A stretch of DNA of 64,000 nt from an uncultured Clostridia bacterium (GTDB lineage: Bacteria; Bacillota; Clostridia; Christensenellales; UBA1242), in contig CAKVMH010000001.1 in NCBI GenBank assembly GCA_934772045.1, positions 234,066-298,065 of the forward strand, written 5' to 3'. The notes below the pieces were generated by a model. That model searched no databases. It saw nothing but the letters and a program-made list of their open reading frames with translations, and was not told the DNA's origin. Position numbers and translations under genes: made by a program. This document shows, in pieces, positions 2,808-60,170 of this stretch (positions are counted from its first letter, which is position 1; each line of letters opens with the position of its first letter).

Positions 2808-2929
2808 ATTTTATTAAATTGCACCCAAAATATTTCGCGCCATAAGAAAACAATTTGCAAAATATGATTTTTATAAACACAAAAAAACTTAATCATGACG
2901 ATTAAGTTTTTTTCTTTATTCATTTTAAT

Positions 2930-3673
2930 TTATCTCTTAAAAATAGGTTTGATTACAACATGGCGTTTTTCGCCTTCGCCAGTTGACTCGGTTGTAACAT
3001 CTTCACGCCCTTGCAATGTTGTGTGAACAATGCGCCTATCGTACGCATTCATAGGGTCCATATGAATGTTGCGTTCAATTTTAATTGCCTGTTCAGCAAT
3101 TTTGTTTGCCAAATCAATGATAGATTGATTGCGGTTTTGTTTGTAACCATCAACATCAAGGTACATTCTAACTGCACCTTCGCCCTTTGTTTTTACGCCA
3201 GATAAAAGCATTTGAATCGCCTGCATATTTTCGCCGTGATAGCCGATAAGTTTGCCAACATTTTCACCGCGAATGCTGAAATTCAATTCATTTTCTCCAG
3301 CAGTGCATTCCACTGTTGCGTTTTCGTCAACAAGGCGTGCAAGCCCCAACAAAAATTCAGTTCCGCGCGCTTGTAAGCGAGTTGTGTCCACAAGTTTGCG
3401 TTTCTTTTCAACGGGCTCTTGTTTTTCTTCAACTTCTTCAACCGTTGCTGGTTGCTCAACTGCAACTTCAACTTGCTTTTCGGTTTCTTGCATTTCAGGT
3501 TCGGTTGGTTGTTCTGGTTCGGTTTCGCCCCAACTTAAAACAACTTTTGCCTTTTTAAACAAGCCACCTTCGTCAAGCACTTTTACATTCACATCTTCGC
3601 GTTTCATTCCGCATTCAAGCAGACCATTTTGAATTGCAATTTCCACAGATTTACCTGTTGCTTCAATTTGCAT
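2930..3673 (-). CDS. jag: Jag/KhpB RNA-binding protein (Jag_N, KH, R3H)
   Basis: Jag_N-like N-terminus, acidic linker and C-terminal R3H-like YDRRIVHTTL; lies immediately downstream of yidC as in most Firmicutes; GGAGG SD. Confidence 0.85.
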   Translation of the reverse strand: MQIEATGKSVEIAIQNGLLECGMKREDVNVKVLDEGGLFKKAKVVLSWGETEPEQPTEPEMQETEKQVEVAVEQPATVEEVEEKQEPVEKKRKLVDTTRLQARGTEFLLGLARLVDENATVECTAGENELNFSIRGENVGKLIGYHGENMQAIQMLLSGVKTKGEGAVRMYLDVDGYKQNRNQSIIDLANKIAEQAIKIERNIHMDPMNAYDRRIVHTTLQGREDVTTESTGEGEKRHVVIKPIFKR

Positions 3674-3736
3674 ATTTCCTCCTTCAACTTAAAAACATTA
3701 AGTTTTTGTAATTTCTTTTCTTACAACAAGATATAA

Positions 3737-4780
3737 TTATTTTTTGTAATTACGGCTATATTCAACCACTTCAACATTCTTTTTAGGAATTAATACATCA
3801 GTTCCATTCTTCGCCTTACGCCTGAAAATGAGTGTTAAAATAGTGGTTATAATTGAAGTGATAACCGAGTTTGTAATAATATACAGCGTGAACACAACGT
3901 TCGATGTCAACACGAATGCAATCATCGAAGCAGGTATGATAACCATCATAACCTTGTTCATGGTGTTGAGTTTTTGCCCTTTTGGTGCAAGTATTTTCGC
4001 ACTCAAAAATTGTGTCAAAAATGATACAGCAACTGCAACCACAATTAAAATGTAGTAACCATTGTTGTCCTTTTCGCCTTTTAAAACTGTCGCTGTAATA
4101 ACTTCATAACGCGTTTTTGCTTCAGCTTTGGCGGTTTCGTCAAAGTTCTGGCTTTTTGCGTAGTCGTCAAAATTTACAAATTGACTGGTGTTTGTGTCTG
4201 GGCGCCAAACATTTTTAACCCAAAGCCAACTGTTTTGCTTTTTAAAGTTTTCGTATTCCTTTTCAATTTGTGCTTTAATGTACACATTTTCGTCATTATT
4301 GTAGATTGATTTATCTAAACTTGTGTCTTCTGCCCAGCTTTTTTCAGCTTGAACATAAGCGGTGTCAAGCTGATTGTATGACGCATAAATTTTGTCGTTA
4401 CCATAACTCCTTATGCTACCATACAAACTGAAGAACACAACAAGTGTCACAATCAATGGCAAAAGCATACTTAAACACATGCCACCAACATTGATGTTGT
4501 ATTTTTTATAAAGTTTGTTGGTTTCTTGATTAATTTTGTTCCTGTCACCTGCGTATTTTTGGTTGATTGCGTCAAGTTCAGGTTGCAAGCCAGACATTGC
4601 GCGCTGTTGCTTGCCAGATGCCAAACGCTGAAAAATGTCGAGTGGCGACAAAACAATTTTTAAAACAATTGTAAACACAACAATTGCCCAGCCATAATTG
4701 ACAAGCCAGTTGGCAAAAAAGTCAATTATGTGTGTCCACATGTCAGCTTTTAAAAACATAGTGTTTGTTAACATTTCCAT
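3737..4780 (-). CDS. yidC: Membrane protein insertase YidC
   Basis: Polytopic 347-aa protein in the conserved position rnpA-yidD-yidC-jag. Confidence 0.9.
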   Translation of the reverse strand: MEMLTNTMFLKADMWTHIIDFFANWLVNYGWAIVVFTIVLKIVLSPLDIFQRLASGKQQRAMSGLQPELDAINQKYAGDRNKINQETNKLYKKYNINVGGMCLSMLLPLIVTLVVFFSLYGSIRSYGNDKIYASYNQLDTAYVQAEKSWAEDTSLDKSIYNNDENVYIKAQIEKEYENFKKQNSWLWVKNVWRPDTNTSQFVNFDDYAKSQNFDETAKAEAKTRYEVITATVLKGEKDNNGYYILIVVAVAVSFLTQFLSAKILAPKGQKLNTMNKVMMVIIPASMIAFVLTSNVVFTLYIITNSVITSIITTILTLIFRRKAKNGTDVLIPKKNVEVVEYSRNYKK

Positions 4781-5055
4781 TTATAATTTCCTAATAAATT
4801 TAATTTTGGCAAGTCAAGCCCTGCCTTGTTTTTTGGTGTGCATTTTAAAATTCGTTTAACAGTTAAAACTAAACCCCAAATTGCCCCAAAATTTAAAATT
4901 GAATTAAAACCATATTCACTGCAAGTTGGCAAAAAATGGCAACTTTTTTGCATGCCGTGCCTAATTATTAGCCTGTAAACCCAAATTAACAACAAAAATA
5001 TTGCCGTTAAAGGAAAGCACAATATATAGTACACTTTAAACCAAAACTCAGCCAT
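4768..5055 (-). CDS. yidD: Membrane protein insertion efficiency factor YidD
   Basis: CHFLPTCSEYG motif; overlaps the rnpA stop and the yidC start. Confidence 0.85.
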   Translation of the reverse strand: MAEFWFKVYYILCFPLTAIFLLLIWVYRLIIRHGMQKSCHFLPTCSEYGFNSILNFGAIWGLVLTVKRILKCTPKNKAGLDLPKLNLLGNYKWKC

Positions 5056-5434
5056 TTATAGGCTCGCTTTGATTTGTTTTTGCTTCACTAGGTGTAGTTT
5101 CCACAAGCAAATTTGCCTTTTTTAATGCACGCAAAAGTTCCACTTCAATTTCCACACTTGTTTTATTTTTTGCCATTTCTTTTGCGGTTATAACATAATT
5201 TTTATTTGCAAATTTTTCAATATTCAACCTGCACGCTTCGCTTATAATTCGCTTAACCCTGCCACGCACAACGCTGTTGCCAACTTGTTTGCTGACAGAT
5301 ATGCCAATCTGTGGGGTTGACCGCCAATTTTTTGTGTAATGAATGTAAAAACTGGTGCTGTGCACTGTTTCACCCTTTTTGTAAACATAGTTAAATTCTT
5401 TACGCTTTTTCAGCCTGTTCGATTTTTTAAGCAT
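5048..5434 (-). CDS. rnpA: Ribonuclease P protein component
   Basis: Basic 128-aa protein with NSVVRGRVKRII (RNR-like motif), directly downstream of rpmH. Confidence 0.9.
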   Translation of the reverse strand: MLKKSNRLKKRKEFNYVYKKGETVHSTSFYIHYTKNWRSTPQIGISVSKQVGNSVVRGRVKRIISEACRLNIEKFANKNYVITAKEMAKNKTSVEIEVELLRALKKANLLVETTPSEAKTNQSEPING

Positions 5435-5443
5435 AAATAATCC

Positions 5444-5578
5444 TTATTTGCTTAATTCTTTTTTGCCTTTGTTTCTGCGCCTTTTTAAAACCCTACGTCC
5501 AGATAATGATTTCATTCTAGCCCTGAAACCATGCACTTTACTGCGTTGTTTTTTCTTTGGTTGGTAAGTTTGCTTCAT
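5444..5578 (-). CDS. rpmH: 50S ribosomal protein L34 (44 aa; absent from the ORF track)
   Basis: Manual translation gives [54 protein letters not shown] at 5583-5590 (minus strand); stop lies 9 nt before the rnpA ATG. Confidence 0.95.
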
Positions 5579-7314: not shown

Positions 7315-7400
7315 GCGGTTATGGCGGAATGGCAGACGCGCTAGTTTCAGGTACTAGTGGGAGTTATCCCTTGCAGGTTCAAATCCTGTTAACCGCACCA
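7315..7400 (+). tRNA. tRNA-Leu(CAG), class II, CCA encoded
   Basis: Manual cloverleaf: acceptor GCGGTTA/TAACCGC, anticodon stem CTAGT/ACTAG with loop TTCAGGT, long variable arm, T-loop TTCAAAT. Confidence 0.95.
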
Positions 7401-8064: not shown

Positions 8065-8628
8065 TTATTTTGTTGAAGCGACAGTTTCCAAAACACCGCC
8101 AGTAAGACCTAACAGCATAAAGTAACCACCCACGCTAACTAATGTTTTAACATCACTCAACATTCCACTATGATTTGCAAGTTTGTTTGCAACAACAAAG
8201 AAAGTGATGAAAGCAACGAGTGCAAAAACAGCCAAAGCAATGCCTAAAATAATGTTCAGTAAATTAAACCTAATGCCAAGCAAAGATATAATTTCAAATA
8301 CAATCACAACCATACTTACAAGCACTGTAAGGAAATAGCACCAAGCAAACAAATTAGTTACAAATGCTGTATCTTCAGCATTTTTTAAGAAAATTAAACT
8401 ATTTGCACCTGTTGTAAAATCTGTTGAATTTTTACCATTAAAAAGTGCTGTGATAACATCTGTACCTTTAATAGGTTCACTATTAGATACAACACCTGCA
8501 ATATTTGATTTAGTTACAAAACAAGGCATGAATAAAGTGCAAACAGTAACTAATGCAAGGACAATAATACAAATTGAAAAGATAACCCTTTTCATGTTAT
8601 TTTTCTTTTTTGATTTTTTCTTTGCCAT
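8065..8628 (-). CDS. Hypothetical membrane protein (187 aa, about 4 TM)
   Basis: Lys-rich N-terminus followed by hydrophobic segments; GGGGAGG SD; hairpin terminator at about 8025-8055. Confidence 0.6.
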   Translation of the reverse strand: MAKKKSKKKNNMKRVIFSICIIVLALVTVCTLFMPCFVTKSNIAGVVSNSEPIKGTDVITALFNGKNSTDFTTGANSLIFLKNAEDTAFVTNLFAWCYFLTVLVSMVVIVFEIISLLGIRFNLLNIILGIALAVFALVAFITFFVVANKLANHSGMLSDVKTLVSVGGYFMLLGLTGGVLETVASTK

Positions 8629-9710: not shown

Positions 9711-9798
9711 TGGCGCAGAGAGGGGGATTTGAACCCCCGAAGGCTTTCACCTTATCGCTTTTCGAGAGCGACACGTTCGACCACTCCGACATCTCTGC
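9711..9798 (-). tRNA. tRNA-Ser(CGA), class II, CCA encoded
   Basis: Acceptor GCAGAGA/TCTCTGC, anticodon stem TCGCT/AGCGA with loop CTCGAAA, long variable arm, T-loop TTCAAAT. Confidence 0.95.
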
Positions 9799-27175: not shown

Positions 27176-27252
27176 TGGTGCGTCCAGAGGGATTCGAACC
27201 CCCGACCTTTGGTTCCGTAGACCAACGCTCTATCCAGCTGAGCTATGAACGC
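27176..27252 (-). tRNA. tRNA-Arg(ACG), CCA encoded
   Basis: GCGTTCATAGCTCAGCTGGATAGAGCG-TTGGT-CTACGGA-ACCAA-...TTCGAAT...GGACGCACCA. Confidence 0.95.
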
Positions 27253-39465: not shown

Positions 39466-39630
39466 AATAACTCCTTCGTTGCCTTAGTTTTTGTAAACAT
39501 GCAAAAATTATACAAACAAAAAATTTCTAGTTATTCACTAGAAAATTTAAAGGTTTTAAAAATAAACCAACTTACTTCGCTTTAGTTCGTAAATATGTTT
39601 TATTGTGAATTACAATAAAAAAGTTGAGGG

Positions 39631-47319: not shown

Positions 47320-47394
47320 GCGCTCATGGTGTAATGGATAGCACAATGGTCTTCGGAACCATTAGTGAGGGTTCGAATCCTTCTGGGCGCGCCA
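47320..47394 (+). tRNA. tRNA-Arg(TCG), CCA encoded
   Basis: Acceptor GCGCTCA/TGGGCGC, anticodon stem ATGGT/ACCAT with loop CTTCGGA, T-loop TTCGAAT. Confidence 0.9.
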
Positions 47395-54854: not shown

Positions 54855-54928
54855 TGGAGCGGGTGATGGGAGTCGAACCCACCTTACAGGCTTGGGAAGC
54901 CCGCGTACTACCGATGTACTACACCCGC
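54855..54928 (-). tRNA. tRNA-Gly(CCC), CCA encoded
   Basis: Acceptor GCGGGTG/CACCCGC, anticodon stem CGGGC/GCCTG with loop TTCCCAA, T-loop TTCGACT. Confidence 0.9.
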
Positions 54929-55174: not shown

Positions 55175-55250
55175 GGCGGTGTGGCTCAGCGGTTAAAGCA
55201 ATCGGTTCATACCCGATAGATCGGTAGTTCGATTCTACCCACCGCCACCA
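55175..55250 (+). tRNA. tRNA-Met(CAT), elongator-like, CCA encoded
   Basis: GGCGGTG acceptor with a paired 1:72 and no GGG/CCC in the anticodon stem (ATCGG/CCGAT), loop TTCATAC. A lysidine-modified tRNA-Ile2 is not formally excluded. Confidence 0.85.
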
Positions 55251-55536: not shown

Positions 55537-55611
55537 GGTCCCATGGTCAAGTGGTTAAGACACCGCCCTTTCACGGCGGTATCAGGGGTTCGAGTCCCCT
55601 TGGGACTACCA
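55537..55611 (+). tRNA. tRNA-Glu(TTC), CCA encoded
   Basis: GGTCCCATGGTCAAGTGGTTAAGACA-CCGCC-CTTTCAC-GGCGG... Confidence 0.95.
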
Positions 55612-58513: not shown

Positions 58514-58720
58514 ATGAATATAGGTAAAGTTATTAGGGATTTAAGGAAGGAACATAAGATAACGCAATCGCAACTTGCAATGGCAATCAATTCAACACAA
58601 GACACCATTTCCCTTTGGGAACTTAATAAAAGTTGCCCAGATGCGTTTTATATTGTCAAACTTGCCAAATATTTTAGTGTCAGTGCGGATTATTTACTTG
58701 GCTTGCAAGATGTCATGTAA
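58514..58720 (+). CDS. XRE-family HTH regulator (68 aa)
   Basis: ITQSQLAMAINSTQDTISLWE HTH core. Confidence 0.7.
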   Translation: MNIGKVIRDLRKEHKITQSQLAMAINSTQDTISLWELNKSCPDAFYIVKLAKYFSVSADYLLGLQDVM

Positions 58721-58844
58721 ATTGGAGCAGTTAATTTAAACTTAAAATTACTTATTCATTTGCTATGCCATGTTAAATGGCGTTTTCAGTGTGTTTTTTG
58801 CTTGCGCACACTTTTTGTTGATTTTTCTGTCTAACCACAAAATA

Positions 58845-58873
58845 TTGACATTATGTAATGTTTGTGATAATAT
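58845..58873 (+). promoter_or_regulatory. Promoter of the large non-coding locus
   Basis: TTGACA (58845-58850), 17-nt spacer, extended -10 TGATAATAT. Confidence 0.6.
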
Positions 58874-58879
58874 AATAAC

Positions 58880-59527
58880 ATAACGAAGGCGCAGTATTCT
58901 AGTCGTCTAGGTTAAGTGAGGATGCTGAAACAAGCATAATTGGCACAACTATGAAGTTTCTGGTGCTGGCTTTGATTGCCCAAATTGGGGCTGGTGCTGG
59001 GAGTTAAGGTTTTTGGGTGGTGTGTAACGGCATACACATTTAAGCCCAACTATCGCGGAGACCCAAGTGGGTAGGTTGAGTGTTATTAGCTGCTTATCTA
59101 TCGCTTGGATTGGGAACCTGCATACGGCGAAAGTTGTGTGCAGTGTAGCCTGCTTTGAGTGGTTAAACTGGGATTGAGCGACAACTTAAATTTATTGCAA
59201 AGTACACGCATACTTTTAGGTTGCTTTTGAAATTTTAACCGCAAAATAAAGCTAAATTTAACTGATGACGTTAAGGAAAACTTCTAGGCTGTTCGTATGA
59301 GGTGCTTTGGGGATTATAGTGTGGTCTCAGTGGCGATTCGGTGCAAGTTTTGCATAAAGGGAAACCGCTTTGTTGGTAACGGCAAAGTGCAAGATTGGGA
59401 AATCCAACCGAACCTTATGCCGCAAGGTTTACTCAAGGTATTGCCTTCGTAATTTGGAAACAACACTTTTAAGTGTGTAAATAAACATAAAAAGAAAAAA
59501 GCAGGTAAGTTTTCACCTGTTTTTTTC
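58880..59527 (+). ncRNA. Candidate large structured RNA (~650 nt), class unassigned (size range of ROOL/OLE-type RNAs)
   Basis: About 1 kb with no credible ORF, visibly G+C-richer than its flanks, bounded by a consensus promoter and the terminator CAGGT-aagttttc-ACCTG plus T8. Many local hairpins, e.g. an 11-bp GAAA-capped stem at 59118-59143 and AACCTT-atgccgc-AAGGTT at 59411-59429. Possible closing helix ACGAAGGC (58883-58890) with GCCTTCGT (59443-59450). Confidence 0.6.
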
Positions 59528-59744
59528 GTTGTGAACACAACAAACCATATTTTTAAATGGGAACAAAATAAATTGGTTTATTATGAGTTTTCTTTTGGCA
59601 AAAATAAACCAATTTGCTTCGCTTTTGCTCGCAAATATGGTTTGTTGTTAATCACAAAAAAAAGTGGCTTAAATGCCACTTTTAAATTCTTAAACTGGAA
59701 TAATGTAACCTATTTTATTATGAAAATTGAATTAACTTAACAAA

Positions 59745-60170
59745 TTAGTCCCTTCTTCTGTTAGGAATTGAAAGCACCAACAACAATGAAACTACGCCGA
59801 CGCCAATAGCAACGTATTCACCAACTTTGTTTGAGAATTGAACAGAAACGTCTGCAGACCCGCCCAAGGCCATAGAAAATTTAACATTGTACATGTTTGA
59901 AATAATCATGTAGTTTTTATCTTCTAAATTGCCAAAATCTTTGGTGTCGTTTAAATAAATTTTATTGCCTTTCAATTTATAAAAACCGGTGTTTTCGCCT
60001 AATTTGTAACTGCCGTCCCATTTAAATTGCAATTCAACAGTTTCAGTTTTGTCGCCAACTTTGTAATTATATTTATAAGTACCAAATGGCAAGATAAACA
60101 TAGGGTAGCCATAACATAAAACAACAAATGCAATTGCAAGTGTTAAAAATATTTTCCTAAAAAAGTGCAT
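59745..60170 (-). CDS. Hypothetical protein with N- and C-terminal TM segments (141 aa)
   Basis: AAAGGAGAAGGG SD; hydrophobic termini. Confidence 0.55.
   Translation of the reverse strand: MHFFRKIFLTLAIAFVVLCYGYPMFILPFGTYKYNYKVGDKTETVELQFKWDGSYKLGENTGFYKLKGNKIYLNDTKDFGNLEDKNYMIISNMYNVKFSMALGGSADVSVQFSNKVGEYVAIGVGVVSLLLVLSIPNRRRD

Follow-up and report, generated by a model that had tools for sequence, protein, structure and literature searches.

The ole locus and its surroundings

The window, by which we mean the whole 64-kb stretch of DNA analyzed here, carries at 58880-59527 (+ strand) a noncoding locus of about 650 nt, the ole gene discussed below, which lies between two small protein-coding genes. 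Upstream is the gene for a 68-aa XRE/HTH_3 regulator (58514..58720, +; PF01381, E 8.8e-14), which an earlier note on this DNA had already recognized as a small XRE regulator adjoining the locus. Downstream, a 141-aa membrane-anchored protein with no Pfam match is encoded on the opposite strand (59745..60170, -). For comparison we had two metagenomic contigs of the same species, L082 (99.98% identity with the window) and L083 (97-99% identity); the samples of this species are human gut metagenomes. The XRE gene is 99.5% identical between two strains and sits at the same position upstream of ole in L079, L083, L086, L087, L089, and L091, a position conserved in all clade members examined whose locus reaches that far. 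Strain L083 has ~110 extra nt between the XRE gene and the ole promoter (L083 5975-6116 vs. window 58733-58766), an intergenic indel upstream of that promoter.

From its sequence, the locus had been read as the gene for a large structured noncoding RNA, a self-contained unit of ~650 nt running from promoter to terminator, and this was correctly seen. The near-consensus promoter that had been pointed out, TTGACA with a 17-nt spacer, is a sigma-70-type promoter at 58845..58873 (+), with TTGACA at 58845-58850, TAATAT at 58868-58873, and, in addition, a TG extension; transcription would start at about 58880. TATAAT-like -10 boxes are found at a fixed distance from the closing helix of the RNA in all of the clade members that we aligned (20/20), and the relative L085 has the same promoter ahead of its OLE RNA. 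At the other end, where a terminator had also been proposed, an intrinsic terminator spans 59502..59526 (+) and consists of a hairpin at 59502-59519 (CAGGT-loop-ACCTG) followed by TTTTTTT. Its stem is modest, with five pairs, three of them G-C, lengthened by A/U pairing, and because an A-run lies upstream of the hairpin, the terminator could also act on transcription from the opposite side. In L085, the OLE RNA is followed in the same place by a terminator that is stronger, at 11 bp. Both ends of the ole transcript are predicted from such sequence signals, and given the promoter and the terminator hairpin, the boundaries first proposed for the locus, 58880-59527, are reasonable. The base composition of the locus differs from that of its neighbors, as had been noticed: G+C content is 0.41-0.44 over 58850-59450, compared with 0.26-0.36 in the flanks and 0.343 in the whole window, and GC skew across the RNA is strongly positive. 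We also agree that 58721-59744 lacks a credible ORF; within the RNA, ORF length does not exceed 51 aa on the plus strand (59297-59452) or 74 aa on the minus strand (59314-59538).

Directly after the ole terminator lies a near-perfect palindromic hairpin of ~127 nt (window 59529-59655), with arms ACAACAAACCATATTT / AAATATGGTTTGTTGT and an inner pair AAATAAATTGGTTTATT / AAATAAACCAATTT. A 69-aa ORF that overlaps this element (59531-59740) is probably spurious. A partial copy of the element occurs at window 39558-39615 (84% over 58 nt), and L091 has a partial match to it just after its own OLE RNA. One possibility is that the element is a small repeat resembling REPs or MITEs, perhaps tied to the breakpoint of the rearrangement described below. 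Next to it, at window 59660-59683, a 9-bp hairpin (AAAAGTGGC...GCCACTTTT) sits between A- and T-runs; it probably terminates the 141-aa gene, which is on the minus strand, and could act in both directions. The 231-nt region that includes the two terminators (59470-59700) folds at z = -8.7 relative to shuffles.

Elsewhere, the window contains seven tRNA genes (7315-7397, 9714-9798, 27179-27252, 47320-47391, 54858-54928, 55175-55247, and 55537-55608; Rfam), three of which cluster 3-4 kb upstream of ole, an arrangement conserved in L085, L089, and L091. Near the left end of the window, at ~2900-5500 (-), is a cluster of rnpA, yidC (60KD_IMP), and jag (KH/R3H), beside which the strain contig L105 also has rpmH and yidD. 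In Bacillota, the rnpA-yidC-jag cluster sits near the replication origin; if this holds here, ole would lie roughly 55 kb from oriC.

The locus encodes an OLE RNA

We compared the whole window with Rfam 15 at gathering thresholds. Its sole match other than tRNAs was OLE (ornate, large, extremophilic) RNA (RF01071), at 58870-59463 (+), which scored 341 bits, far above the gathering score of 50, with an E-value of 1.7e-96. This covariance-model match is full length, spanning model positions 1-616 of 616. ROOL, GOLLD, HEARO, and raiA, which like OLE are large structured noncoding RNAs of Bacillota, had no match in the window at these thresholds, nor did the intron models. The earlier note had presented the locus as a candidate RNA of unknown class, while naming OLE among the large RNAs that it might be and remarking that a clean Rfam match would make it known rather than novel. 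The scan that it had called for gave just such a match. The label of unknown class therefore has to be dropped, the mention of OLE was apt, and the locus holds an intact member of the OLE family, which is already known, and not a new class. The family was reportedly described in 2006 by Puerta-Fernandez et al. from the Breaker laboratory. This assignment takes one false 'new RNA class' candidate off the list.

At the level of primary sequence, the window copy matches the upper-case consensus blocks of the Rfam model and carries the long invariant OLE blocks GCAGUAUUCUAGUC, GGCACA..AUGAAGUU, GUAGCCUGC, GGAUUAUAGUGUGG, UAAAGGGAAACCGC, and GGGAAAUCC. About 250 columns are invariant within an alignment of 20 OLE sequences from the window's clade. 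In OLE RNAs, about 25% of positions are more than 97% conserved (PMC12265935).

Using a conserved OLE motif to scan GTDB species-representative genomes, we collected 81 OLE loci. The closest of these, L071 and L079, are 87-88% identical to the window, and the next, L046, L021, L052, and L039, are ~80% identical; all six come from gut MAGs. The nearest loci are labeled either Clostridia or 'Candidatus Onthoplasma', the latter placed in Bacillota/Clostridia by NCBI and, as we take it, in TANB77 by GTDB. Going by these labels, the host belongs to Bacillota, as is expected of an OLE host, OLE hosts being typically anaerobic or extremophilic members of that phylum; a survey of OLE across GTDB returned 2,822 hits in Bacillota (PMC11332333).

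Covariation supports the OLE fold

To the 20-sequence clade alignment we fitted a consensus fold with RNAalifold. The fold comprises 149 consensus pairs, 58 of which show compensatory changes, and the window copy forms all but one of them (148/149). The same alignment, together with shuffle and slide controls, was used to test seven helices that the earlier note had read from the window sequence.

Three of the seven helices are supported by covariation. The closing helix, earlier called possible, joins ACGAAGGC at 58883..58890 (+) to GCCTTCGT at 59443..59450 (+) and has three compensatory pairs, one of which, for example, is G-C in 11 sequences and A-U in nine. The 11-bp stem capped by a GAAA tetraloop (59118..59143, +) is paired in 99% of cells, has two compensatory pairs, and agrees with the Rfam consensus. 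The third is a stem with a variable interior (59161..59240, +), closed by GGTTAAA at 59161-59167 and TTTAACC at 59234-59240, in which 5/7 pairs are compensatory. Another three compete with pairings that are better supported. In place of the CTAG...CTAG hairpin proposed at 58899-58910, the first CTAG pairs at long range with a CUAG at ~59285, and the pair adjoining this long-range pairing covaries (UA in 11 sequences, CG in seven). The bases assigned to an ACCCA/TGGGT hairpin belong to a longer covarying stem, and the coordinates given for it, 59062-59073, are off by one base, the true ones being 59061-59072. For TGCAA/TTGCA at 59342-59354, pairing reaches 76%, and an alternative, GTTTTGC/GCAAGAT, covaries. 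The last of the seven, AACCTT/AAGGTT at 59411-59429, is invariant in the alignment, and covariation is uninformative for this pairing.

Beyond these helices, the Rfam match and the clade alignment (columns 99-145) both contain a long, near-invariant hairpin with a GCCCA loop (58957..59003, +). This hairpin would correspond to the elongated P3 stem of the literature, a putative membrane-spanning stem of OLE (PMC12265935).

oapA is missing from a rearranged ole locus

The gene oapA is the 'most common' downstream neighbor of ole but not a universal one (PMC12265935). Among the 81 loci that we collected, tblastn identified OapA homologs directly downstream of OLE in 66, with several of the other loci being cut off at an end, and oapA follows OLE in all close relatives examined whose locus is not cut off. 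In L071, the gene directly after OLE encodes a membrane protein of 209 aa whose sequence includes a DVIGD (DxxxD) motif. In the window, oapA is not immediately downstream of ole, and a tblastn search of the 64 kb with the L071 OapA found no homolog (best match E = 2.7), bearing out the earlier remark that no oapA-like gene lies downstream. Screening the membrane ORFs of the window for TM segments, the DxxxD motif, and Pfam matches likewise revealed no OapA, and there is no oapA in the 9 kb past the window end on contigs L082 and L083. Two candidates were considered and rejected. One is a 187-aa ORF with five TM segments (8065-8628), which has neither a family match nor a DxxxD motif. The other is an oapA after uvrB beyond the window, as a simple inversion would predict; in L082, uvrB is followed by a giant 7,307-aa gene, and the 640-nt gap there holds no OapA signal. 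The absence of oapA had earlier been taken as an argument against OLE. This argument does not hold, as ole often has oapA next to it but adjacency does not define the family (PMC11332333, PMC12265935); an intact oapA is, moreover, apparently present elsewhere in the species. The case is a caution not to rely on 'oapA downstream' for recognizing OLE.

Gene order was read in four related species (L071, L085-L087, L089, and L091), in which it runs ychF(-), uppP, XRE, OLE, oapA(+), uvrB(-), and, farther on, s2(-), s1(-), pepF(-), and the gene for a 142-aa protein (+). In the window species, OLE(+) is followed by the 141-aa gene (-), pepF(+), s1, s2, an inserted gene for a 1,806-aa S8 peptidase, and uvrB(+). 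The 141-aa protein, encoded where oapA would be, is 57% identical to the 142-aa protein of L091 and is the ortholog of the gene that lies beyond pepF in the relatives. The block from uvrB to the 142-aa gene has therefore been inverted, and oapA is gone from the locus. Judging by gene order, rearrangements that include an inversion of the uvrB-to-pepF block are the explanation for the absence of oapA after ole, and it takes two or more events to arrive at the present order.

Two large genes adjoin the rearranged block as species-specific additions. One encodes the 1,806-aa S8-peptidase/LRR protein between s2 and uvrB (L082 11138-16558), an insertion with respect to the relatives; the other encodes the 7,307-aa protein, a DUF285/LRR/Flg_new surface protein that follows uvrB just past the right end of the window (L082 19404 onward).

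An intact oapA is apparently encoded elsewhere on the chromosome

Searching with the L071 OapA gave 4,705 homologs, several of which have weak PF01595 (CNNM) matches. The representative of one cluster, P0009, is 76% identical to the L071 OapA, and a member of this cluster, P0197, occurs on 29 contigs. P0197 is a 182-aa protein with an NDVIGD (DxxxD) motif, and it matches CNNM at 26 bits, below the cutoff of 28.4; a sub-threshold CNNM match is also what has been published for OapA (PMC11332333). The longest contig carrying P0197 is 771,805 bp, a figure that is identical for the window's pepF, s2, 141-aa, and uppP proteins, and P0197 is present in sample ERZ28614486, from which L082 was obtained. 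From the identical longest-contig figure and the shared sample, we infer that P0197 and the window belong to one genome, with an intact oapA apparently encoded on the same 771,805-bp contig as ole. By this linkage, P0197 would be the OapA partner of the window's OLE RNA.

P0197 has the same context in all strains, ftsH(-), cvpA, tyrS, oapA(+), and the 20 kb read around it contains no OLE RNA. When the region after ole in the window was compared with the flanks of oapA in the strain contig L095, no breakpoint repeat was found; in L095, homology to the oapA locus of the relatives is confined to the oapA coding region. Small genes, including one for an Ntox35 toxin-domain protein, adjoin the relocated oapA (L095 12017-13544). 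The number of genes there varies between L095 and the contigs L097 and L100, which points to a variable islet of polymorphic toxins beside oapA in its new position.

Proposed function and alternative explanations

We are confident that an ole gene occupies window 58880-59527 (+), that its host is an uncultured gut bacterium of the Clostridia, low in G+C and related to 'Candidatus Onthoplasma', and that OapA is supplied in trans. According to this model, ole would be a transcription unit with an extended -10 promoter and a terminator to itself, and the RNA is predicted to fold into the conserved OLE architecture of a closing helix, the long GCCCA-loop hairpin, and many covarying stems. The later steps are modeled on work in Halalkalibacterium halodurans, Clostridium acetobutylicum, and C. 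botulinum (PMC12265935, PMC11332333, PMC12286853). OLE RNAs are typically abundant transcripts whose deletion brings on stress phenotypes. By analogy, the RNA may dimerize and bind the membrane protein OapA near P2 and P4a, and the resulting RNP may be held at the cell membrane, possibly with a long P3 stem that crosses the bilayer, where it could help against stress from alcohols, cold, excess Mg2+, or poor carbon sources. OapA would come from the oapA gene downstream of tyrS elsewhere on the chromosome. In L085, oapA has a separate near-consensus promoter and OLE has a promoter and terminator of its own; ole and oapA would therefore have been independent transcription units before the split, making their separation easy to tolerate.

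The sole unusual feature here is the relocation of oapA within one species-level clade. The finding is of modest interest, for OLE specialists. In this gut lineage, ole stands alone as a transcription unit, and within one species-level clade oapA has been relocated with no visible decay of either gene, which would show that the OLE-OapA partnership does not depend on adjacency. The split of ole and oapA, with both genes intact and constrained, might be taken further, as a natural demonstration that the partnership works without cis-linkage or co-transcription. We regard this stronger claim as improbable. A bolder form would have the partnership itself changed, with OLE working together with the adjoining 141-aa membrane protein or independently of OapA.

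An alternative is that oapA was lost in the rearrangement and that ole is now an orphan or decaying gene, a relic turning into a pseudogene. The lack of oapA in the 64-kb window and in the 9 kb beyond it is what such a loss would leave behind, as is a downstream block that is rearranged with respect to all relatives. We nevertheless hold this to be very improbable. The RNA's score of 341 bits equals that of strain L083 (341.3 bits) and lies among those of oapA-linked relatives (337-364 bits), and all but one of its consensus pairs are intact. Between the window and L083, the OLE RNA differs at 2/594 positions, compared with differences of 2.6-2.7% in ychF and uppP and 1.1% in pepF, and it is more conserved between the two strains than the flanking ychF, uppP, pepF, s1, and s2. 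P0197, an OapA homolog that is intact and has the DxxxD motif, also shares its 771,805-bp longest contig and its sample with the window proteins.

An intact ole gene served in trans remains our preferred reading, and none of the tests speaks against membership in OLE. The OLE copies of Clostridium and Hathewaya score 490-502 bits, ~150 bits above the window RNA, and some inner stems of the latter align poorly and with low posterior probability to the Rfam model (59069-59110 and 59168-59233). On these observations, one might take the window RNA for a large structured RNA of a new class, with no more than a resemblance to OLE. Such a reading is close to inconceivable: all 616 model positions are matched (E 1.7e-96), the long invariant OLE blocks are present, and in close relatives oapA lies directly downstream, so that the Rfam match and the OLE-oapA synteny have already refuted it. 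A score this far below that of Clostridium OLE instead marks the clade as a divergent subtype. Overall, the window RNA is not shortened: the two strands of its closing helix are 568 nt apart, much as in the Clostridium copies. Finally, the small ORFs within the RNA and an 82-aa ORF that a gene caller set just after OLE in strain L083 could hint at a missed protein-coding gene, or the locus could be a cis-regulatory leader of a neighbor, but we give these options a negligible chance, as variation tracks base pairs rather than codons (58 compensatory pairs), the ORF at 59531-59740 has no family match, and the unit closes at a terminator with the next gene on the opposite strand.

Comparison with known OLE RNAs

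The window RNA is like OLE RNA (RF01071) in its full-length match, its conserved blocks, and its covarying multi-stem architecture, a complex fold backed here by 58 compensatory pairs out of 149. As in OLE, the host is an anaerobic member of the Bacillota with an OapA partner in its genome. The neighboring genes are also typical of OLE, namely uppP (isoprenoid, cell wall) in the window and uvrB (DNA repair) in the relatives. The window differs in that its oapA is not adjacent to ole but lies downstream of tyrS elsewhere in the genome. In addition, the window ole is monocistronic, with its own promoter and terminator, whereas the ole of H. halodurans is part of a polycistronic transcript (PMC12265935).

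Variant OLE RNAs have been described in gut clades with reduced genomes, variant 1 in TANB77 and variant 2 in RF39 (Fernando and Breaker 2024, PMC11332333). In variant 1, P7, P8, and P9 are shortened and the OapB site at the tip of P13 is often missing; OapB and OapC, which occur in about 60% and 45% of OLE hosts, respectively, are largely absent from TANB77 and RF39 (PMC11332333). Similar to these variants, the window RNA comes from an uncultured, low-GC (34%) gut host known from metagenomes, and its sequence is likewise divergent, scoring below classical OLE. The window RNA shows no overall shortening and matches every position of the OLE model.
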